Virus record (IMG/VR): IMGVR_UViG_2721755676_000001
Length of the DNA stretch: 64,000 nucleotides
Reading direction: 5' to 3' (one strand)
DNA from: a virus
Taxonomy: Duplodnaviria > Heunggongvirae > Uroviricota > Caudoviricetes
The notes under the pieces were generated by a model. The model ran no database searches and was not told the origin of the DNA. It was given only the letters and a program-made list of their open reading frames with translations. Below, one piece after another: positions 5,938 to 64,000 of this stretch (its first letter is position 1; each line of letters opens with the position of its first letter). The position numbers and the translations under genes are program-made.

Positions 5938-6813
5938 ATGCCATTACTGCGTGAAGAAGCTGAAAAGCTGTCTAACAACGAACTTGAACAGGGTGTGATC
6001 GAAACTATCATCGATCGCGATGACCTGTTTGCCATCCTGCCTTTTATGAAAATTAATTCAAAGGCATATCTGTACAACCGTGAAAAAACGCTGAGCGAAG
6101 CTACTTTCATTGATGTGAACGACACCATCACCGAAGGTGCAGCAACCTTCGAAGAGAAAGTTGCGAAGCTGCGCATTCTGGCTGGCGACGTTGACGTCGA
6201 CAAATTCCTGGCTACCACTATGGCTGATACCAACAACCAGCTGGCTATCCAGGTTCGTCAGAAAGTCAAAGGTCTGGCTCGTGCCTTCCGTCGCAATCTG
6301 ATTGTTGGCGACTCCACCACTAACAACAAAGCCTTCGACGGTATTCCGAAGCTGATGCATGACGATCAGAAGATCGACATCTCCGGCGCATCCATGACTT
6401 TCTCTATGTTCGACGAACTGGTCGACGCAGTTAAAGATCTGGGCGCAGACTGCATCATGATGCGTTCTGAGCATCTTCGCGCATATCGTGCGCTGCTGCG
6501 AACTGTAAACGTAGGCCCGTCCGAAATCATGATGGAAAACTTCGGTCGACCAATGCTGTGCCATAACGGCGTTCCGTTTATCGTAAACGACTTCATCCCG
6601 ACCGATGCTGGCAAAGCAAGCATCTACTGCCTGCATCTGTCAGAAGAGAACGGCGTTACTGGTCTGTATGGCGGCGACAACGCAGGTATCGTTGTTGAAA
6701 ACATTGGTACTGTACAGAACAAAGACGCAGTACGTACCCGTGTGAAGTGGTACTGCTCTCTGGCGAATAAGCACGATAAGGCTATCGCTGCACTGACCAA
6801 TGTAAAAATTTAA
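5938..6813 (+). CDS. major capsid protein (putative)
   Basis: 291-aa ORF after scaffold, followed by strong intrinsic terminator; synteny. Confidence 0.65.
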   Translation: MPLLREEAEKLSNNELEQGVIETIIDRDDLFAILPFMKINSKAYLYNREKTLSEATFIDVNDTITEGAATFEEKVAKLRILAGDVDVDKFLATTMADTNNQLAIQVRQKVKGLARAFRRNLIVGDSTTNNKAFDGIPKLMHDDQKIDISGASMTFSMFDELVDAVKDLGADCIMMRSEHLRAYRALLRTVNVGPSEIMMENFGRPMLCHNGVPFIVNDFIPTDAGKASIYCLHLSEENGVTGLYGGDNAGIVVENIGTVQNKDAVRTRVKWYCSLANKHDKAIAALTNVKI

Positions 6814-29100: not shown

Positions 29101-29334
29101 ATGATGAAAAGATTATTTCTAACAATAGCTGTTGTTCTCTCTCTTACTGGCTGCCAGAAATTGCCGACACCTATATGTTATGGTGAAGCTATCATTGGTG
29201 GACAGGAGACAGTCATACCCATATATGCTGTTAAAAAAGTGAACGACTATACCTTATACAAAGCGGGTAGCATCTATAACTGGCGATGGGTTGGAGTAGG
29301 TGCTTTCTCATCAATCGGTTGCAATGCTGAATGA
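29101..29334 (+). CDS. small lipoprotein (candidate Cor/Llp-like superinfection-exclusion protein)
   Basis: Signal peptide with lipobox LSLTGC; 77 aa; located directly after tail fibre genes. Confidence 0.5.
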   Translation: MMKRLFLTIAVVLSLTGCQKLPTPICYGEAIIGGQETVIPIYAVKKVNDYTLYKAGSIYNWRWVGVGAFSSIGCNAE

Positions 29335-33477: not shown

Positions 33478-34245
33478 TTATGCCGCGCTAACACTATGTT
33501 CAGTCCTAACCACCCCAACCTTCACAAAAGGGCTACCGTAGCTTGGTGGCTTCTTGATTAATTTGCCTACATACAGTTTTCTAATATGCTCATCGGCTAT
33601 TCTGCCAACAAATTCATAACGTTTTGTGTCGGGGCCAAGAGCTATATCCCTTGTAAAGTACTGCTGAGAACCGGCTTTGACCCAGCATTCAATCTGATAA
33701 ACTTCCATTATCAGCCCACCATATGTAGCGTAGGCATATTTGAGATTCTCGTCTCTTGGAACCTTTGCCCATACGCCACGCGTAGCTTCATATAATGCCA
33801 GAGCGGACATTCCTGACTTGTAGGTGCTGTTTAGCAGGAAGGCAAGACCGGCGTGCTCAGGAGCAATTTCAGTTTCCTCTTGCAGCACTAAGTGATGGTA
33901 GGCGTCCAGTGATATTCTGCCCATCATGGAACCACTTCCTCGTACCTTATTCGTAAGCTCTCCGACCCCCATAAGGTCGATGCATGTCGCCTCAACAAGT
34001 TTGGCTGTGGTTTCATCCATACCATGACGAAGTATATCTATGCCTAATTTTTTATTAGCCAAAAGTTCTTTGATCCGCATGGATTTGGGAGAGTCATCGG
34101 GATACTTGATGTGATCGAGACAACGAGTCGATTTGCCTTTTCCTATGTAAAACGGTCTTTTCATCTTGTCTTCTGTATCATAGAGACAGTAAACATAGTA
34201 TTTAGCCTTATCCAATGATCTCGCGTATACCGATAAATCGTCCAT
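33478..34245 (-). CDS. GIY-YIG domain endonuclease (homing-endonuclease-like)
   Basis: N-terminal YYVYCLYD...PFYIGKGK matches GIY-x10-YIG; lone minus-strand gene among plus-strand genes. Confidence 0.75.
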   Translation of the reverse strand: MDDLSVYARSLDKAKYYVYCLYDTEDKMKRPFYIGKGKSTRCLDHIKYPDDSPKSMRIKELLANKKLGIDILRHGMDETTAKLVEATCIDLMGVGELTNKVRGSGSMMGRISLDAYHHLVLQEETEIAPEHAGLAFLLNSTYKSGMSALALYEATRGVWAKVPRDENLKYAYATYGGLIMEVYQIECWVKAGSQQYFTRDIALGPDTKRYEFVGRIADEHIRKLYVGKLIKKPPSYGSPFVKVGVVRTEHSVSAA

Positions 34246-42054: not shown

Positions 42055-42126
42055 GATGGTGTAGCTCAGCGGTAGAGCAGTTGGCTGTTAACCAACTGGT
42101 CGGTGGTTCGAATCCACCCACCATCG
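42055..42126 (+). tRNA. tRNA-Asn (anticodon GTT)
   Basis: Cloverleaf folded by hand: acceptor GATGGTG/CACCATC, anticodon loop CTGTTAA, T-arm GGTGG-TTCGAAT-CCACC, discriminator G then CCA. Confidence 0.85.
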
Positions 42127-42134
42127 CCAATTTA

Positions 42135-42218
42135 GGGGAGTTAGTCCGTAGGGGCAGCGGAGTAGACTGTAAATCTACTGTCATGGCGACTCGGGTGGTT
42201 CGACTCCATCACTCCCCA
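42135..42218 (+). tRNA. tRNA-Tyr (anticodon GTA), long variable arm
   Basis: Acceptor GGGGAGT/ACTCCCC, anticodon stem GTAGA/TCTAC with loop CTGTAAA, long variable arm, TTCGACT T-loop, CCA encoded. Confidence 0.8.
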
Positions 42219-42225
42219 CCAAATT

Positions 42226-42298
42226 GCCGGTTTAGCTCAGTTGGTAGAGCGCCTGCCTTGTAAGCAGGATGTCAGCGGTTCGAGTCCGCTAACCGGCA
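42226..42298 (+). tRNA. tRNA-Thr (anticodon TGT)
   Basis: Acceptor GCCGGTT/AACCGGC, D-arm GCTC-AGTTGGTA-GAGC, anticodon loop CTTGTAA, T-arm AGCGG-TTCGAGT-CCGCT, CCA encoded. Confidence 0.85.
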
Positions 42299-42525
42299 CC
42301 AATACAACGATAAGATCATTACGGTTAATCGTCGTTCATGTGCACAATGACTGGTCGAAAGGTAGTGATCTTACCGTTGTGGTGGATTCGCAGACTGATG
42401 CGATAGCTTTCTTGGATGTTAGGGAAATGCGGCCGCAAATCTTCCCTTTCGCGAGCGGTGATCGTCCGTAGTCCTAATTGGCTGCACCGTATGCCGGAGA
42501 TTCAGTACCGGCCACCACAACGGCC

Positions 42526-42609
42526 GGAGAGTAGGGAGCATGGTGCTCAAGCGGTCTTGAAAACCGTCCCATTGCGCAAGCGATGATGGTTCGATTCCAT
42601 TACTCTCCG
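42526..42609 (+). tRNA. tRNA-Ser (anticodon TGA), long variable arm
   Basis: Acceptor GGAGAGT/ACTCTCC, anticodon loop CTTGAAA, long variable arm, T-loop TTCGATT, discriminator G, CCA encoded. Confidence 0.7.
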
Positions 42610-42789
42610 CCAGACACAGCGTTGAGCGGTTTGGCCTTTTAATCACCCAGATTAAGACTCCGCTAACATAAACCAGACCGCTCAACGCTGTGATAGACAA
42701 TTACGGCAGACGTTCTTAACCATAGCTTGCTAACATCCTAGCAACACTTTTTTCAGCGCAAAATTCAAAGGGGCTTCGGCCCCTTTTTG

Positions 42790-43686
42790 TTAATGATTAT
42801 CTAGGTATGCTATTAACTCATTTTTAATGATAAGTGAATATTCTAAAATCTCACCTAGTAAATATTCTGCTTTTTTAAAATGCCAACCCATATAGCCTAA
42901 TTTTTCTGAAGGTCCTTCTAACAACATTATAATATCGCTGTCTTTCTCTTTGGCAATGTATTGTCTTATTTCTATCTCAAAATTATTTCTTGTCTTCCCA
43001 CTTATTGATGATTCATCCAAAACTTTAGTTATAAACTTTTCCGTGTCGATGAACTTTCCTGCATTATGCACAATTGTATGTCTTAGCAGCTCAATTAAAG
43101 TGATCTCGAAACGATAGTTTTTACCTATCTTGTTATTTATTTCTACGTCTCTAAAATTGGGTAACTTTCTTCTAAATACTTTCAGGATTTTTTTTGGTGC
43201 TTTATTATTTCTTTTTATCGCATTGTAGTAGGTTTCCATGTCTCCATTTTGTTCGATCTGAACATTTTTAAATTCACTAGGTTGCCAAAAATGGTCATGA
43301 ATACTCACTGTATGGGCATATATTTTCTTAATATAGTCTTCAAACAATTCATATGCTTCGGTTATAACCCATTGATACTGTTTATTTTTTAACACTTCAC
43401 ATAACTTTATCTTCTCTGAAAGATCTGTTCTAGTATGCCCAATTCCAAATGTTGAACCTGTATATGGATTTGAGCATGTATGGTTTGCTAACGTTGTCCC
43501 GCATGTTAATGGGAAAGTATTATTAGCATCTAGATTTTGTACGTTTTCAAGTGTATGCTTAAATCGCTTTATGTTGTCTTTCGTTGTAACATTTATATGA
43601 CCTAACAAGTCACAACGTAAAATTATTTCATTTCTTAAATCAGTGAATATTTTTTCGACAAAAGAACCTGATGGGTTTTCAATCAT
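42790..43686 (-). CDS. hypothetical AT-rich protein with HEPN-like R-x4-H motif (candidate abortive-infection/defence protein)
   Basis: 298-aa minus-strand ORF, Lys/Asn/Ile-rich, AGAGG RBS; motif RHTIVH; directly flanks tRNA cluster. Confidence 0.5.
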   Translation of the reverse strand: MIENPSGSFVEKIFTDLRNEIILRCDLLGHINVTTKDNIKRFKHTLENVQNLDANNTFPLTCGTTLANHTCSNPYTGSTFGIGHTRTDLSEKIKLCEVLKNKQYQWVITEAYELFEDYIKKIYAHTVSIHDHFWQPSEFKNVQIEQNGDMETYYNAIKRNNKAPKKILKVFRRKLPNFRDVEINNKIGKNYRFEITLIELLRHTIVHNAGKFIDTEKFITKVLDESSISGKTRNNFEIEIRQYIAKEKDSDIIMLLEGPSEKLGYMGWHFKKAEYLLGEILEYSLIIKNELIAYLDNH

Positions 43687-43861
43687 CTAAACCTCTACGA
43701 AAATCTTACCTATAAGACAGTCCTTAATGTAATCTGTTTTCTCCACTACTTCAAATTACCTCACAATCTATTGATAGGTGACTACCTACTTACATACAAA
43801 GTTGATTTATAGTATAGTCCCTCTGTTGCGTATTAGTATTTTAAAAGGCATCTGTTAAGTT

Positions 43862-44107
43862 ATGACGATCACTATCTACGGACGAGATAACTGCTCATAC
43901 TGCAAACGTGCGGTCGAGCTGGCGAAGCAACTAAAGGGACATGGCTACGGTGATTATAAGTACATCGACATCACCACTGCCGGTATCGATAAGGAAAAAC
44001 TTAGCGAAATTGTTGGAAAACCGGTAGAGACTATCCCCCAGGTGCTGATCGATGGCCAGCCGATTGGCGGATACACAGAGATGGCATCTTTCGTAAGTTT
44101 CTTATAA
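43862..44107 (+). CDS. glutaredoxin (NrdH/Grx-like)
   Basis: 81 aa with CSYC active site near N-terminus and glutaredoxin-like C-terminal GG motif. Confidence 0.8.
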   Translation: MTITIYGRDNCSYCKRAVELAKQLKGHGYGDYKYIDITTAGIDKEKLSEIVGKPVETIPQVLIDGQPIGGYTEMASFVSFL

Positions 44108-57274: not shown

Positions 57275-58348
57275 ATGGCAAAAGGAAAATCCGCACTGGC
57301 ACTTGCTCTGAAAAAGAAAATCGGTAGCAACGACGAAATTCAGAAAGTAACTCATTGGATTGATACAGGCTTTCCACCGTTAAACAAAGCTATTTCTGGT
57401 CGTTACGATGGCGGCTTCCCATGTGGTCGTATCGTCGAAGTATTCGGTCCTCCAAGTGCAGGGAAAACGTTCCTTGCAACAGCAGCGATGATCTCCGCTC
57501 AAAAACAAGATGGTCTGGCGGTATTCCTCGATCATGAAAACAGTTTTGACGTTGGCCTGGCTGTAGCCAATGGCCTGAACGCAGATGAGGATGACGGTCA
57601 GTGGGTCTACAAACAGCCGGATACCTTCGAAGACTCCGTAGAGCTGATCGGCACAATCCTCAAGCTGGTGCGCGACGAAGAGCTTATTCCGGAAACAGCC
57701 CCTATCTGCATCGTAGCCGACTCTCTGGCGTCGATGGTTCCGAACTCGAAGGCTGAGAAGTTCGACAAGATGGCAGAAGGCACTGCGAAGGACAAAGATC
57801 AGCTGAACATGAACGACAACACGGCGCTGGCGCGCGCGACAAGTGCGAACTTCCCTACTCTGGCGCTTTGGGCGCGTAAGTACAACGCGTGCATCATCTT
57901 CTTGAACCAGGTGCGTACCAAAATTGGTGTGATGTTTGGCGATCCGACTACGTCTCCGGGTGGCGACTCTCCGAAGTTCTACGCGTCGGTGCGCATCCGT
58001 CTGGGTGCATCCGTCATGAAGGATGGCAAAGAGAAGATCGGACAGGACGTTGGCGCCGAGTGCATTAAAAACAAAGTCGCGCCTCCGTTTGGCAAATGCT
58101 CATGGAAATTCTACTTCGACCCGACTCGCGGGCTGGACGTCGTCGAGTCTCTGGTTGAATACATGCTGGAGGAAGGATACCTGCCCAAGAGCGCCAGCGG
58201 GCGTGTGGAAATTGGCGAGAAGAAATACACCAAATCACAGATCGTCGAGATGTACCGGGAGAAGCCATTAGCTGAAATCATTGCTGCGTTACAGGCAATA
58301 GATGACAGGCGCGAGAAGACATCACCGACAGATGAATTAGAAGATTAA
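57275..58348 (+). CDS. RecA-family recombinase (RecA/UvsX-like)
   Basis: Walker A GPPSAGKT, Walker B ICIVADSLAS, RecA-like FLNQVR block; AAAAGGAG RBS. Confidence 0.85.
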   Translation: MAKGKSALALALKKKIGSNDEIQKVTHWIDTGFPPLNKAISGRYDGGFPCGRIVEVFGPPSAGKTFLATAAMISAQKQDGLAVFLDHENSFDVGLAVANGLNADEDDGQWVYKQPDTFEDSVELIGTILKLVRDEELIPETAPICIVADSLASMVPNSKAEKFDKMAEGTAKDKDQLNMNDNTALARATSANFPTLALWARKYNACIIFLNQVRTKIGVMFGDPTTSPGGDSPKFYASVRIRLGASVMKDGKEKIGQDVGAECIKNKVAPPFGKCSWKFYFDPTRGLDVVESLVEYMLEEGYLPKSASGRVEIGEKKYTKSQIVEMYREKPLAEIIAALQAIDDRREKTSPTDELED

Positions 58349-58642: not shown

Positions 58643-58834
58643 ATGAAGAAAGGTTTACTGGCAGTGATCGTGGCTGCTGTTTGCACAATGGGTCTTACAG
58701 GCTGCGATCGTGTTGAGCCTGGGTACGTTGGCATCAAAGTAAACAAATTGGGTGAAGACAAAGGTATCGGTGAAGTTGTCGGCGTTGGCCGTCAGTGGAC
58801 TGGTCTGAATACCGAGCTGTACACCTCTCTTTAA
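58643..58834 (+). CDS. small lipoprotein (short or truncated)
   Basis: Signal peptide with lipobox LTGC; only 63 aa; GGGGAAG RBS. Confidence 0.45.
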   Translation: MKKGLLAVIVAAVCTMGLTGCDRVEPGYVGIKVNKLGEDKGIGEVVGVGRQWTGLNTELYTSL

Positions 58835-58847
58835 GTCATCTTAAATG

Positions 58848-58895
58848 ACTCTGAGGTGTCTGTTAAACCTGTGGCGATTCAGTCTATTAAACCTG
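58848..58895. repeat. tandem direct repeat, 2 x 24 bp (GTCTGTTAAACCTGTGGCGATTCA / GTCTATTAAACCTGTGGCGATTCA)
   Basis: Read directly; one mismatch between units. Confidence 0.85.
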
Positions 58896-59066
58896 TGGCG
58901 ATTCACTTTATGGTGTCATAAACTTAAATCTAGCGCCGGGTAGAACAAGTTAATCGAACGATGTAGCGGCCATTTAGGCGTTACAGAAAGAACAGAATTT
59001 TAAATTTATAGTGAAGCCGTTGCAGCAACTTTGTGGGGTGCAACCAACACTGAACAGGAAAAGAAA

Positions 59067-61496
59067 ATGGATCATAGTGTACATAACAAGCTCATCTCAT
59101 TTATATGGAACATTGCCGACGACTGTTTACGTGATGTGTACGTTCGCGGTAAGTACCGCGATGTGATTTTACCTATGGTGGTATTACGACGTTTAGATAC
59201 GTTACTTGAACCCACCAAAGAAGCCGTGCTTGAAGAGGTCAAGTTCCAAAAAGAAGAGATGCAAGCCACGGAGCTTGATGATGAACCATTGAAGGCGGCT
59301 AGTGGTTATGTTTTTTACAATACATCTAAATGGACCCTGAAATCCCTGTTCAACACCGCAACGAATAACCAACAGATATTACTCGCCAACTTTGAAGAGT
59401 ACCTGCTTGGCTTTAGCGATAATGTTAAAGAAATCATTGAATGCTTTAACCTCAAGTCGCAAATTCGTCACATGGCCTCAAAGCAAGTCCTTCTTGATGT
59501 CGTCGAAAAGTTTGTTTCCCCTTACATCAACTTAACTCATGAAACGATCGAAGACCCAGATGGCAACAAGATGCCAGCCCTTACTAACCTGGGTATGGGG
59601 TACGTGTTCGAAGAGTTGATCCGTAAGTTCAACGAGGAGAATAACGAAGAAGCCGGTGAGCACTTTACACCTAGGGAAGTGATTGAGCTGATGACACACT
59701 TGGTTTTTGACCCAGTGAAAGAGCAGCTACCATTGACCATGACCGTTTACGACCCTGCGTGTGGTAGCGGTGGTATGCTCACTGAATCTCAAAACTTCAT
59801 TGAAGAGAAATACCCGAACGACAGCCGAGATATTTACCTTTACGGCAAAGAGATCAATGACGAGACCTACGCGATTTGTAAATCGGACATGATGATCAAA
59901 GGTAACAACCCTGAGAACATCAAGGTAGGCTCAACCTTGTCTACCGACGAGTTTGCGGCTTCTCGCTTTGACTTTATGTTGTCTAACCCGCCATACGGTA
60001 AGAGTTGGGCGTCTGAACAGAAGTACATTAAAGACGGCAGCGATGTGATTGACCCGCGTTTTAAGGTTAGCCTGAAAGACTATTGGGGAAATCTCGAAGT
60101 GGTGGATGCCACGCCACGTTCGAGTGATGGCCAGCTGCTTTTCTTAATGGAGATGGTCAACAAGATGAAAGATCCGAGCGTAAGTCCATTAGGCAGCCGG
60201 ATTGCCTCTGTTCATAACGGCTCATCGCTCTTTACCGGTGATGCGGGCGGTGGCGAAAGTAATATTCGTCGCTTCATCATTGAAAACGACATGCTAGATG
60301 CCATCGTTCAGTTACCTAATAACCTGTTCTATAACACTGGCATTACCACTTACATTTGGGTGTTGAACAACAATAAACCTGAGGCGCGTAAAGGTAAGGT
60401 GCAATTAATTGATGCCAGCTTGCTCTACCGTAAGTTGCGCAAGAACTTAGGTAACAAAAACTGCGAATTTGCGCCTGAGCACATCACGGAAATTACCGAT
60501 ACTTACCTCGCGTGTAAGGATGTTGAAAGAGCACTGGATGCAAACAATGATCCTGTTGGCATCGCCAGTAAGGTATTCAGCAATGACGATTTTGGCTACT
60601 ACAAAGTCACTATCGAGCGCCCAGATCGCCGCAAAGCCAAGTTTACTCAAGATGCCATAGCCCCACTGCGTTTTGATAAGCAACTTAGTGAAGTGATGGA
60701 GTACGTGTACGCAGAGCACGGCGAACGTGTTTACGAAAAAACTGGCTACGGGTCAGATCAGAAAAAGAGCTTCTTAAAATCCATCGAGAAAGACATTCTT
60801 TCTTGGTGTGAAGATAACGACATCAGTCTCAATGCTAAGGCTAAGGCCAAACTGCTTGATGTGAAACACTGGCTGGCGCTAAAAGCATTGCTTGAAACTG
60901 CACAAACGCTGATGGCTGACATCGGTAGCATTGAATTTGATGACTTCAATAGCTTTAAAACCCAAGTTGATAAATCGCTAAAAGCCCATGCTATTAAGCT
61001 TTCAGCACCTGAGAAAAATGCCATTCTTCACGCGGTGAGCTGGTATGACGAAACCGCCAAGAAAGTGGTTAAAAAGGTAGTTAAATTAACGGGTGATAAA
61101 TTAAACGACCTGCTGGAGCGCTATGAGTGTGAAGTCGCTGACTTGCCAGATTTTGGTTATTACCCCGTTCCTTCAGCAGAAGGCGGTAAAAAAGGCGAGT
61201 ATATCACTTACGAGACCAATTCAGACCTGCGAGATACAGAATCTGTTCCATTAAAGCAAAGCATTTACCAGTACTTCCTAGATGAAGTGAAGCCTCATGT
61301 CGATGAAGCATGGATAAACCTAGATACGGTAAAAATTGGCTATGAAATCAGCTTCAATAAGTATTTCTACCGTCATAAACCGCTGCGTAGTTTAGAAGAG
61401 GTTGCAACCGACATCATCAACCTAGAACAAAAAGCCGAAGGTCTCATTGCGCAGATATTGGGTGTTAAAGTGGCGGAAGCTCAGGGAGAAGCGTAA
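59067..61496 (+). CDS. hsdM: Type I restriction-modification system methyltransferase subunit (HsdM), long form
   Basis: N6-adenine methyltransferase motif IV NPPYG (MLSNPPYGKSW) and SAM-binding region DPACGSGGML; followed by HsdS; ATG 59067 with AGGAAAAG RBS. Confidence 0.85.
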   Translation: MDHSVHNKLISFIWNIADDCLRDVYVRGKYRDVILPMVVLRRLDTLLEPTKEAVLEEVKFQKEEMQATELDDEPLKAASGYVFYNTSKWTLKSLFNTATNNQQILLANFEEYLLGFSDNVKEIIECFNLKSQIRHMASKQVLLDVVEKFVSPYINLTHETIEDPDGNKMPALTNLGMGYVFEELIRKFNEENNEEAGEHFTPREVIELMTHLVFDPVKEQLPLTMTVYDPACGSGGMLTESQNFIEEKYPNDSRDIYLYGKEINDETYAICKSDMMIKGNNPENIKVGSTLSTDEFAASRFDFMLSNPPYGKSWASEQKYIKDGSDVIDPRFKVSLKDYWGNLEVVDATPRSSDGQLLFLMEMVNKMKDPSVSPLGSRIASVHNGSSLFTGDAGGGESNIRRFIIENDMLDAIVQLPNNLFYNTGITTYIWVLNNNKPEARKGKVQLIDASLLYRKLRKNLGNKNCEFAPEHITEITDTYLACKDVERALDANNDPVGIASKVFSNDDFGYYKVTIERPDRRKAKFTQDAIAPLRFDKQLSEVMEYVYAEHGERVYEKTGYGSDQKKSFLKSIEKDILSWCEDNDISLNAKAKAKLLDVKHWLALKALLETAQTLMADIGSIEFDDFNSFKTQVDKSLKAHAIKLSAPEKNAILHAVSWYDETAKKVVKKVVKLTGDKLNDLLERYECEVADLPDFGYYPVPSAEGGKKGEYITYETNSDLRDTESVPLKQSIYQYFLDEVKPHVDEAWINLDTVKIGYEISFNKYFYRHKPLRSLEEVATDIINLEQKAEGLIAQILGVKVAEAQGEA

Positions 61497-62818
61497 TGGA
61501 GCGTTTAGCATTGATGCCGAAATATGAGGATTATGTAGATTCTGGAGTTGAATGGTTAGGGGATTTACCGAGCCATTGGGACGCAGTAAAAATGAAGTTT
61601 CTTTTCAAAGATACGTCGATGAAAAACAAGCCTAACGAAACTTTATTATCTGTTACACAAAGTCAAGGTGTTGTTCCCAGAGAGTGGGTAGAAAACAGAA
61701 TGGTTATGCCATCTGGCAATCTAGAAAGCTTCAAGTTCATTGCAAAAGGTGACTTTGCTATAAGCCTTCGTTCCTTTGAAGGTGGTTTGGAGTATTGTCA
61801 TCATGATGGAATCATAAGCCCTGCTTATACGGTGTTAAAAACTAAGAAAGATTATCTACTTGCAGGATATTACAAATATTTGTTTAAAAGTCAGACTTTT
61901 ATTTCAGAGTTACAAACATCGATTGTAGGGATTCGTGAAGGAAAAAACATCAGTTATGAGGAGTTGCAATATTCACTTCTTCCTATTCCGGCTGAAGAAG
62001 AACAAACCCGTATCGCCAACTTCCTCGACAAGAAAACCGCTCTAATCGACGAAGCGATTTCGATCAAAGAGCAGCAAATTAGCCTGCTGAAAGAGCGTAA
62101 GCAGATCATCATCCAACAGGCGGTGACCCAAGGGCTTGATCCCAATGTGCCAATGAAAGACTCCGGTGTGGATTGGATTGGTAAGATTCCAGCGCATTGG
62201 GACGTTAAGAGGTTAAAATATCTTGGTAAATCGATCATTGGGTTAACTTATTCGCCAAATGATTTAAGTGATGAAAAAGGCGGAACTCTAGTTGCGCGAT
62301 CATCAAACTTATACGAAGGGAAGTTTAAGTATGGTGAAAAGGAAAATGTTTATATCAATTGCTTTATTCCTGAGCACTTAAAGCTTAAAAAAGGTGATAT
62401 TTTGATATGCTCCAGGAATGGAAGTCGAGACCTAATTGGCAAGTGTGCATTTGTATCTGACGCTGATGAGGGAAACAGCTTCGGGGCCTTTACTACGGTA
62501 TTCAGATCTAAACACAATGAGTATTTATTTTGCATTCTAAATAGTGATGTTTTCAAAATGTTATCAGGGACATTTCTTACATCAACAATTAATCAGCTTA
62601 CAGTGGGGAATCTTAATAGCATTTTTGTGCCTTTCCCCCCTTCTAAAAATGAACGAGATGGAATTATTACGTACATTAACAGATTAAATGGTGATGTTGA
62701 GCGAGCTATAGAGTATCAAAAAATAAAAATCGAAAAGCTTAAAGAATATAAAACCACCCTGATCAACAGCGCCGTGACAGGAAAAATCAAGATCACCCCA
62801 GAAATGGTTGAGCAATAG
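61496..62818 (+). CDS. hsdS: Type I restriction-modification system specificity subunit (HsdS)
   Basis: Two target-recognition-domain halves separated by conserved helical spacers (EEQTRIANFLDKKTALID and NERDGIITYINRLNGDVE); coupled to hsdM (TAATG). Confidence 0.85.
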   Translation: MERLALMPKYEDYVDSGVEWLGDLPSHWDAVKMKFLFKDTSMKNKPNETLLSVTQSQGVVPREWVENRMVMPSGNLESFKFIAKGDFAISLRSFEGGLEYCHHDGIISPAYTVLKTKKDYLLAGYYKYLFKSQTFISELQTSIVGIREGKNISYEELQYSLLPIPAEEEQTRIANFLDKKTALIDEAISIKEQQISLLKERKQIIIQQAVTQGLDPNVPMKDSGVDWIGKIPAHWDVKRLKYLGKSIIGLTYSPNDLSDEKGGTLVARSSNLYEGKFKYGEKENVYINCFIPEHLKLKKGDILICSRNGSRDLIGKCAFVSDADEGNSFGAFTTVFRSKHNEYLFCILNSDVFKMLSGTFLTSTINQLTVGNLNSIFVPFPPSKNERDGIITYINRLNGDVERAIEYQKIKIEKLKEYKTTLINSAVTGKIKITPEMVEQ

Positions 62819-62827
62819 GAAGCGAAT

Positions 62828-63991
62828 ATGTTCACGGTAAATCATCAGACCAACAGGATTAGTCCGGTTAAGACGAAGAGATTCAGTGAGTTGGGCTTTA
62901 CTGAGCGCAAAAATCTTCAGGAATGGTTGGCACACGAGCCTTCCGCACTGGGTGAAGAGCTGCTGATTATTCAAAAAGAGTTCGATGGCTTTGATGACAC
63001 CCGTGAACGCTTAGATTTACTGGCACTGGATAAAGATGGCAACTTGGTCATTATTGAAAACAAGCTGGACGACAGTGGCCGCGATGTGGTGTGGCAGGCG
63101 CTTAAATATGCCTCCTACTGCGCAAGTTTAACCAAAGCGCAAATCGTTGAAATTTACCAGCAGTACTTAGACCGCTATGAGCCTGTAACAGGAGAGGTTG
63201 ACTTGTTTAATACCCCTGCAAGTGCCTCTGCTAGAATATGTGAGTTTTTGGATGCGCCCGATCTCGATGAGTTAAAGCTCAACCTGGGTAACAGCCAGCG
63301 CATTATGTTAGTTGCGGCAAACTTTCGCAAAGAAGTGACCAGCACCGCGCTGTGGTTATTGGGTCAAGGCATTAGCATTGCCTGCTTCAAAATCACGCCT
63401 TATTCACTGGGTGAACAGCTACTGATTAATATTGACCAGATCATTCCAACGCCAGAAGCGAAAGAGTTGATGATCGGCATTAATGCCAAGGAAGCGGAAG
63501 AAAAAACCACCGAAGTGGTACTAAAAAACCGCCATACCGTGCGTCGCGAGTACTGGGAGCGTGCCTTAGAGGCGTTTCAGAAAAGCTCTTGCCAACTCTA
63601 TAACAACATTAGCCCAAGCAAAGATCATTGGTTATCAGCAGGCTCAGGGCTAAGTGGATGTCCGTATAACCTGATATTTCTGCAAAAAGAGCTTCGAGTA
63701 GAGCTTTGGATCAGCCGTGGGGTTACCGAAGAGAATAAATACCTTTTTGATTTGTTGAGTCAGTCCAAACAAGACATTGAGCATACTTTTGGTGCAGAAC
63801 TTGAGTGGATGAGGCTGGATGAGAAGAAATCTTGCCGTATCCAGTTTTCGACCAAAGCTGACGGGTTTAACAAAGAGACTTGGCCCCAAGCGGTTGCGTG
63901 GCACTTAGAGCAGATGACAAAGTTAGAAAAAGCCTTAAAAGGACCGCTGCAAAAAGCGGCTGAGGCAATGAAACAGAAGAATTTTGATTAA
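62828..63991 (+). CDS. hypothetical protein with PD-(D/E)xK nuclease-like N-terminal motif, embedded in R-M locus
   Basis: Motif LDLLALDKDGNLVIIENK resembles D...E-x-K restriction-endonuclease-fold signature; AGGAAG RBS; sits where accessory genes often lie between hsdS and hsdR. Confidence 0.45.
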   Translation: MFTVNHQTNRISPVKTKRFSELGFTERKNLQEWLAHEPSALGEELLIIQKEFDGFDDTRERLDLLALDKDGNLVIIENKLDDSGRDVVWQALKYASYCASLTKAQIVEIYQQYLDRYEPVTGEVDLFNTPASASARICEFLDAPDLDELKLNLGNSQRIMLVAANFRKEVTSTALWLLGQGISIACFKITPYSLGEQLLINIDQIIPTPEAKELMIGINAKEAEEKTTEVVLKNRHTVRREYWERALEAFQKSSCQLYNNISPSKDHWLSAGSGLSGCPYNLIFLQKELRVELWISRGVTEENKYLFDLLSQSKQDIEHTFGAELEWMRLDEKKSCRIQFSTKADGFNKETWPQAVAWHLEQMTKLEKALKGPLQKAAEAMKQKNFD

Positions 63992-64000
63992 GGGAACTTA

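Follow-up and report, generated by a model that had tools for sequence, protein, structure and literature searches.

A 64,000-nucleotide (nt) stretch of viral DNA (IMG/VR record IMGVR_UViG_2721755676_000001, Caudoviricetes), referred to here as the window, carries near its right end, at positions 59,067 to 63,991, the genes hsdM and hsdS of a Type I restriction-modification (R-M) system, followed by a gene for a protein of 387 amino acids (aa). Together with hsdR, which starts just past the window, these genes form what looks like a complete and undamaged Type I R-M operon, carried as cargo by an Escherichia coli phage-plasmid. The 387-aa protein is assigned to PDC-S11, a candidate defense family. 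The best explanation of the four-gene operon, which we consider reasonably probable, is that it would combine classical Type I restriction with an autonomous second nuclease, one that is modification dependent (Type IV-like) and covers complementary targets. The locus is a real and tidy example of an arrangement that is already catalogued and does not represent a new kind of system, because its genes are found in RefSeq, the protein family is represented in PADLOC, and embedding in Type I loci is the very basis of the published catalogue.

The gene order hsdM-hsdS-387-aa gene-hsdR, with all four genes on the plus strand and three of the open reading frames (ORFs) inside the window, is accompanied by very tight spacing: -1 nt between hsdM and hsdS, 9 nt between hsdS and the gene for the 387-aa protein, and 14 nt between the latter and hsdR. 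The overlap of the hsdM stop codon with the hsdS start as TAATG makes translational coupling of these two genes plausible. The ORFs of the operon match known families with E-values from 1e-39 to 1e-268 and are not chance ORFs. No hsdR appears in the ORF listing of the window. Plasmid pSLy3 of E. coli strain 210205630 (NZ_CP015915.1; 114,472 bp, circular) matches the window with 100% identity and supplies the missing subunit, which contains the HSDR_N, ResIII, SWI2_SNF2, and T1R_D3-like Pfam domains, matches the PADLOC REase_I profile, and retains the motifs D155...E169xK171, GSGKS319, and DEAH431. All the components of a Type I system were found, including HsdM with its characteristic domains and motifs, HsdS with two target recognition domains (TRDs), and, outside the window in NZ_CP015915.1, HsdR with its nuclease and superfamily 2 helicase/translocase parts. 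Type I methylation and ATP-dependent restriction by this locus are predicted from these genes.

HsdM comprises the HsdM_N (aa 10-149, E-value of 7.6e-23) and N6_Mtase (aa 177-487, 2e-60) domains, in which the methyltransferase motifs DPACGSG (at residue 229) and NPPY (at residue 307) are intact, and a long C-terminal region. The protein matches the PADLOC MTase_I profile PDLC03029 (3.5e-268) and also phrog_34860, so that the long form as a whole can be assigned to a recognized subfamily. It scores 108 bits against the TIGR00497 equivalog cutoff of 243 bits and therefore represents a divergent subfamily. The experimentally solved HsdM structures (500 to 540 aa) align with the long form only up to residue ∼488, so the real excess over the standard HsdM is ∼250 to 290 aa. 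In database homologues, the C-terminal extension (aa 488-809, window positions 60528-61493) has a confidently predicted fold (predicted local distance difference test [pLDDT] score of 87); it corresponds to no Pfam family, and a structure search with the predicted fold revealed no counterpart in the PDB. An alternative, in-frame start of hsdM is the TTG codon at position 59031, 36 nt upstream of the ATG, which would result in an 821-aa protein. The ATG at 59067 is the start used in RefSeq and has the better purine-rich upstream stretch (AGGAAAAGAAA).

HsdS is covered end to end by the PADLOC Specificity_I profile (aa 7-434, E-value of 4e-104), and the Pfam domain Methylase_S is recognized only in its second TRD. 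Both TRDs of hsdS differ from those of the copies in integrative and conjugative elements (ICEs) and of other E. coli copies, and the center of the gene (61996-62202) and both its ends are conserved, which fits the expected two-TRD pattern. The TRDs (61560-61995 and 62203-62726) constitute the main difference among islands on E. coli plasmids, chromosomes, and ICEs that are otherwise 97 to 99.5% identical, which suggests frequent swapping of hsdS specificities between the copies of the island.

An earlier note on this DNA, made from its letters and ORFs before any database search, had described a Type I R-M locus with a long HsdM of “about 810” aa and an HsdS, in agreement with the coordinates (809 aa) and the Pfam and PADLOC results, and had taken hsdM and hsdS to be translationally coupled, which the TAATG overlap makes plausible. 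Its “roughly 300-aa” extension is an acceptable description of the ∼320 aa that follow the methyltransferase domain, keeping in mind the somewhat smaller excess over the standard HsdM. The gene for the 387-aa protein is present where it had been placed, albeit 9 rather than 10 nt after hsdS. The note was also right that the window contains no HsdR, and the extension of the locus that it proposed, made here with NZ_CP015915.1, places hsdR 14 nt after the gene for the 387-aa protein; with hsdR included, PADLOC profiles matched the locus as MTase_I, Specificity_I, REase_I, and PDC-S11. Both the observation and its interpretation are thus supported.

Fold, family, and distribution of the embedded protein

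The embedded gene is preceded by an AGGAAG ribosome-binding site, and its product matches the PADLOC PDC-S11 model PDLC04913 over almost its entire length (604.5 bits, E-value of 1.8e-182, aa 1-383, profile positions 1-373 of 375); seven more PDC-S11 models also match. In the “guilt-by-embedding” study of Payne et al. (bioRxiv 10.1101/2024.01.29.577857), the PDC candidates were defined by their embedding in bacteriophage exclusion (BREX), defense island system associated with restriction-modification (DISARM), or Type I R-M loci. The C-terminal part of the protein (aa 238-372) is a DUF4268 domain (PF14088), recognized with 136 bits against a gathering cutoff of 27. Related sequences comprise 5,541 clusters among 1.84 billion cluster representatives, most of them with the same full-length architecture.

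The AlphaFold (AF2) model of the protein, built from a 59-member alignment, had a pLDDT score of 94.4, and Foldseek matched it to EndoMS and NucS, with NucS/EndoMS as the top structural match. A search of the PDB sequences with the 387-aa protein alone returned nothing; the alignment with NucS emerged from the family profile, in which residues 62-95 align with NucS residues 159-192. In this profile alignment, D63, E77, K79, Q90, and Y94 fall on D160, E174, K176, Q187, and Y191 of NucS, which we take to be its active-site residues. All of the 59 aligned family members, which share 30 to 60% identity, have E26, D63, K79, Q90, and Y94, and 58 have E77; the catalytic Glu is found at exactly residue 77 in 44 of them, including the 387-aa protein itself. 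The protein thus contains the restriction-endonuclease-like core and the D...(D/E)xK triad that characterize the PD-(D/E)xK superfamily. Because of the structural match and the aligned and conserved catalytic residues, it consists of a NucS-like PD-(D/E)xK nuclease domain connected by a long helix to DUF4268. The D...E-x-K nuclease-like motif that the earlier note had pointed out near the N terminus (residues 62-79, LDLLALDKDGNLVIIENK) is therefore confirmed by the top structural match and the alignment of catalytic residues, and the profile and structure searches that it had called for returned a nuclease fold rather than a nonnuclease housekeeping one.

Copies of this protein with 97 to 100% identity are found in Vibrio, Providencia, Proteus, Morganella, Alteromonas, Marinomonas, Salmonella, and E. 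coli. The neighborhoods of its homologues were surveyed at 80 loci, one genome per species, in a search seeded with a 15-sequence alignment; Type I neighbors were called with single-sequence phmmer. At least 40 of the 80 homologues occupy the interval between hsdM/S and hsdR of Type I systems from two different and unrelated families: 16 in the same long-HsdM family and 24 in other Type I families, in which most HsdMs are 500 to 580 aa long and the distance to hsdR is often 0 to -3 nt. Five more loci, mostly at contig ends, have Type I genes on one flank only, three show another arrangement, and no Type I system was detected by phmmer at 32 (an upper bound). Altogether, at least 35 of the 80 homologues have no flanking Type I system detectable by phmmer; as counts of true absence, such figures are upper bounds. 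Sampled neighbors of such Type I-free homologues include Type III mod/res genes, ZorC/ZorD-like genes, a NERD nuclease, and a Schlafen/AlbA_2 protein, and one further homologue is located directly downstream of a Type I system. This mixture of contexts makes the PDC-S11-type family a resident of defense islands whose preference for the hsdS-hsdR slot is strong but not obligatory. A specific tie between the nuclease and the long form of HsdM was rejected, as 24 of the 40 embedded homologues belong to other Type I families. So was the idea of an alternative cassette between hsdS and hsdR, since the E. coli copy lacking the DUF4268 gene proved to be merely truncated by an IS3 element.

Function of the embedded nuclease

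The favored explanation starts from what was observed: which genes are present and the intactness of their motifs, the fold and family of the embedded protein, how often its homologues are embedded, and the mobile elements around the locus. We infer the rest, namely, that the nuclease is independent of the Type I complex, that it depends on DNA modification, and that it is equivalent to MdgA. The HsdM2S1 complex would methylate the host and the phage-plasmid at the site specified by HsdS, and HsdR would cut incoming DNA that lacks this methylation, as in classical Type I restriction. The product of the embedded gene would work apart from this complex as a second, autonomous nuclease. Its DUF4268 domain, which the long helix joins to the catalytic domain, is a probable sensor of DNA or of its modification, and the nuclease would cleave phage DNA whose hypermodified bases hide it from Type I restriction, so that the two enzymes would cover complementary targets.

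DUF4268 is a frequent C-terminal addition to the Type IV enzymes of the GmrSD family and has been predicted to bind DNA (PMC4619093, PMC5714182). The DUF4268-containing nucleases MdgA and MdgB each protect E. coli against phage T4 but not against the unmodified T4-GT7, and they do so when expressed without other defense genes; MdgA also protects against Mu, and the purified enzyme preferentially degrades modified T4 DNA, whereas its E77A mutant is inactive (PMC12366544). Given this link of DUF4268 to Type IV enzymes, the MdgA/MdgB data, and the position of the catalytic Glu at residue 77, we regard an MdgA-type enzyme as the most likely identity of the 387-aa protein: a modification-dependent nuclease, probably of the MdgA family, that would act alone and complement the Type I enzyme. 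Its autonomy would also be consistent with the homologues that lack a detectable flanking Type I system (at least 35 of 80). The earlier note had suggested a separate anti-phage or abortive-infection gene. The first part agrees with the PADLOC assignment as a PDC-S11 candidate; as to the second, direct DNA-targeting restriction by this nuclease appears more likely than abortive infection.

Several points weigh against this explanation. The likeness to MdgA is circumstantial, consisting of a common domain name and a residue number, and MdgA has been described as having no homology to known defenses (PMC12366544), so that its fit with the PDC-S11 match is uncertain. The literature search, with one preprint naming PDC-S11 outside its coverage, found no experiment on the 387-aa protein or any named PDC-S11 member. 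The very tight spacing and the conserved presence of the gene inside operons of two Type I families would also be compatible with a functional coupling to the Type I complex, and the counts of loci with no Type I system nearby, having been obtained with single-sequence phmmer, are upper bounds.

Among the alternatives, it is fairly unlikely that the protein is a modification-independent defense nuclease similar to Shedu, HamA of Hachiman, or Cap4, in which DUF4268 would sense DNA ends, replication intermediates, or some other cue of infection. The likeness to these proteins is limited to the common PD-(D/E)xK core, whereas DUF4268 is specifically tied to the Type IV enzyme GmrSD and the modification-dependent MdgA and MdgB. 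The main rival, raised by the identical position of the gene, is a PrrC-like guard: the nuclease would remain latent in the Type I complex until freed by an Ocr- or Stp-like anti-restriction protein and would then degrade DNA and abort the infection. The gene for the 387-aa protein indeed sits exactly where prrC is found in the EcoprrI locus (hsdM-hsdS-prrC-hsdR; PMC12707154) and is translationally close to both its neighbors, and its homologues are found in this slot in two distinct Type I families, often at 0 to -3 nt from hsdR. However, the protein has no sequence similarity to PrrC; its PADLOC matches with E-values of ≤0.01 are restricted to PDC-S11 and PDC-S18 models, and membership in the PrrC family was rejected because these matches include no PrrC model and the fold is of the PD-(D/E)xK DNA-nuclease type. 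In addition, at least 35 of the 80 homologues have no detectable Type I partner, and some of these are found beside Type III R-M or Zorya-like genes; the protein family is not bound to the long form of HsdM; and MdgA and MdgB each protect in the absence of other defense genes (PMC12366544). We therefore consider such a guard unlikely. The broader proposal of a nonautonomous nuclease functionally linked to the Type I complex, whether as a guard freed by anti-restriction proteins or as an alternative effector recruited by the methyltransferase core, appears quite unlikely. If it were true, the conserved presence of the gene in the hsdS-hsdR slot of two unrelated families would reflect a mechanistic partnership, and the locus would represent a DNA-nuclease analogue of PrrC on a temperate phage-plasmid.

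It is highly improbable that the protein is a housekeeping mismatch-repair endonuclease of the NucS/EndoMS type, or a selfish homing nuclease, whose arrival in the operon was incidental: although there is a match to the NCBIfam NucS model NF003270 (E-value of 1.8e-5) and some UniRef entries are named “Endonuclease NucS,” this match scores 23.9 bits, far under the equivalog cutoff of 216, and covers only the nuclease half of NucS (profile positions 118-201), the N-terminal DNA-binding domain of NucS being absent. Orthology to NucS was rejected on both this score and the domain architecture. Besides, the gene resides on mobile elements and in defense islands, with copies 97 to 100% identical in Vibrio, Proteus, Alteromonas, and E. 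coli, which is the signature of accessory cargo and not of a core repair gene.

The locus has a modest importance as a clean natural example of layered defense, in which a candidate modification-dependent nuclease is cotranscribed with a methylation-based Type I system and travels with it among SXT/R391 ICEs, the chromosomes of E. coli, and a temperate phage-plasmid. A lysogen could thus be equipped by its phage against competitors with hypermodified as well as unmodified DNA. The same locus offers a ready test case, native to E. coli, for the function of PDC-S11, its kinship with MdgA, and its autonomy from or coupling to the Type I complex.

Host element and origin of the island

The window encodes phage proteins (terminase, portal, major capsid, tape measure, and tail fiber proteins) and a set of replication and repair proteins (DnaB-like helicase, primase, ligase, DnaE, gp32-like single-stranded DNA-binding protein, 5'-3' exonuclease, and RecA), and in NZ_CP015915.1 a gene for the plasmid initiator RepB is found just downstream of it. 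The backbone flanking the island is 88% identical to that of Escherichia phage Cyrano and 79% identical to that of Salmonella phage SSU5. With its phage and plasmid genes and SSU5-like flanks, the host element is an SSU5-type phage-plasmid (SSU5 supergroup), as judged from its genes alone, and the description of the locus as phage-borne cargo in the earlier note was correct. Previous work has described R-M systems carried by SSU5-type phage-plasmids (bioRxiv 10.1101/2025.09.12.675607).

Table 1. Features of the R-M island and its junctions in window coordinates
Feature	Position	Strand	Description
SPFH/stomatin-like gene, 5' remnant	58643..58821	+	Left insertion junction; RefSeq pseudogene lacking the C terminus
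IS3-family terminal remnant (inverted-repeat end)	58822..58881	not assigned	60 bp of an insertion sequence (IS) of ∼1.2 kb; 100% identical to the end of an intact element in E. coli MSB1_9D
24-bp tandem duplicate of the IS terminus	58882..58905 (second copy); 58858-58905 (pair)		From a repeat search; GTCTGTTAAACCTGTGGCGATTCA / GTCTATTAAACCTGTGGCGATTCA, second copy GTCTATTAAACCTGTGGCGATTCA
brxR remnant	58906..58953	+	Last ∼48 nt of the gene for a WYL-domain regulator; homology to the ICE module starts at 58906
hsdM, long form	59067 (ATG)..61496	+	809 aa; HsdM_N, N6_Mtase, and ∼320-aa C-terminal region
hsdS	61496..62818	+	440 aa; start overlaps the hsdM stop as TAATG
Embedded nuclease gene	62828..63991	+	387 aa; PD-(D/E)xK domain, helical linker, DUF4268; PADLOC PDC-S11
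Start of the spacer before hsdR	63992..64000	+	Part of the 14-nt spacer; AAGGGA ribosome-binding site
hsdR (NZ_CP015915.1)	window equivalent 64006, 6 nt past the window end (L001:20707-23724)	+	Intact, 1005 aa

The left junction of the island is composed of remnants of several elements (Table 1). Homology to the intact 831-nt SPFH gene of phage Cyrano ends at position 58822, and, compared to Cyrano, the island replaces ∼1.07 kb of the backbone, comprising the 3' two-thirds of the SPFH gene and most of a 417-nt ORF. The 60-bp end of the IS3-family element occurs in ∼1,200 of the 5,426 complete E. coli genomes. Position 58906 of the window corresponds to position 6133 of an ICE-borne module (L002), within its brxR gene (L002:5212-6180), and no capacity to encode BrxR is left at the left junction of the pSLy3 copy.

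The module is 94 to 96% identical to the cargo of SXT/R391 ICEs. Alteromonas genomes and several metagenomes contain these four genes between rumAB and traI of an SXT/R391-type ICE, with the BrxR/WYL regulator upstream and two genes of unknown function followed by an operon of the cyclic oligonucleotide-based antiphage signaling system (CBASS) downstream. In the Alteromonas ICE (L002:14102-19495), these are genes for 361-aa and 183-aa proteins without Pfam or PADLOC matches and a CBASS consisting of a SAVED-HNH effector and a SMODS cyclase; all of these post-hsdR genes are absent from the phage-plasmid. The ultimate source of the module is cargo of the SXT/R391-ICE type, and the module reached the phage-plasmid through an IS-associated rearrangement that disrupted the SPFH gene and removed BrxR. 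Since only the closest relatives of the module have BrxR upstream, its absence from pSLy3 is a secondary loss. A promoter scan upstream of hsdM found no plus-strand site and nothing scoring above shuffled sequences, and hence no convincing replacement promoter. The E. coli/phage-plasmid lineage, having lost the BrxR repressor, provides a natural experiment on the regulation of such modules.

To the right of hsdR, outside the window, there is an IS911-like element that is split by a group II intron carrying ltrA (L001:23781-26705). In the chromosomal copies from E. coli, such as the one in strain 20, the module is 99% identical and the IS911-like element with its intron is found upstream of hsdM (L095:5788-8936). 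This circular permutation suggests that the module moves as an IS-associated circular unit. Within the same set of 5,426 genomes, the module is present in 63, at 43 chromosomal and 23 plasmid places. At least 24 plasmids in PLSDB contain 80% or more of the left-junction query, and all 15 listed run through the junction.

Elsewhere in the window, four tRNA genes (Asn, Tyr, Thr, and Ser) are found at 42055-42612; the kilobase after this cluster (43001-44000), with a minus-strand hypothetical gene, has the lowest GC content of the window (33.8% versus ∼47%). Genes for a Cor superinfection-exclusion lipoprotein (29104-29334) and, on the minus strand, a LEM-3-like GIY-YIG nuclease (33478-34245) may provide the phage-plasmid with further exclusion or selfish functions. 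The recA gene (57275-58348, 357 aa) is uninterrupted, and phage Cyrano has an insertion of ∼1.26 kb at the equivalent point (L009:3710-6049). A LAGLIDADG homing endonuclease is annotated beside the island in many sister plasmids, and the presence of the intein- or intron-type element looks variable in the SSU5-type backbone.

Relation to known systems

The closest match is PDC-S11 itself: the 387-aa protein is a single-gene cassette in a Type I operon that is matched over its full length, and no difference from this family was detected. It shares the combination of a nuclease with DUF4268 with MdgA and MdgB (Cell Host Microbe 2025, PMC12366544). Both MdgA and the family of the 387-aa protein are widely spread across phyla, and both represent single-gene defenses, although for the latter this is putative. 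The E77A mutant of MdgA is dead, and the catalytic Glu of the 387-aa protein is likewise E77 (in the sequence IIENK), a likeness by residue number. MdgA came from a metagenomic insert, whereas the gene analyzed here belongs to a Type I operon.

With NucS/EndoMS (PDB entries 2VLD and 5GKE), the protein has in common the nuclease fold and the D...ExK...Q...Y constellation. It lacks the N-terminal domain of NucS, has DUF4268 instead, and is found in the context of defense genes and mobile elements. The genes of the EcoprrI-PrrC locus are arranged in the same way, a foreign effector gene being placed between hsdS and hsdR. However, PrrC is an ABC-ATPase-like nuclease that cleaves the anticodon of tRNA-Lys and is guarded by the R-M complex, in contrast to the PD-(D/E)xK DNA-nuclease type of the 387-aa protein.

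The association of a modification-dependent nuclease with a methylation-based system is also seen with BrxU in the pEFER BREX island and with hsdRMS, mrr, and mcrBC in E. coli's immigration control region. BrxU is a Type IV enzyme of the GmrSD type with DUF262 and HNH domains within a BREX locus, whereas the nuclease described here is of the PD-(D/E)xK type and resides in a Type I R-M locus. The BrxR/WYL regulator upstream of the ancestral ICE version, lost in the pSLy3 copy, is a further similarity to the BREX island. The combinations of hsdRMS with mcrBC/mrr and of BREX with BrxU follow the same logic of complementary coverage (PMC12707154).

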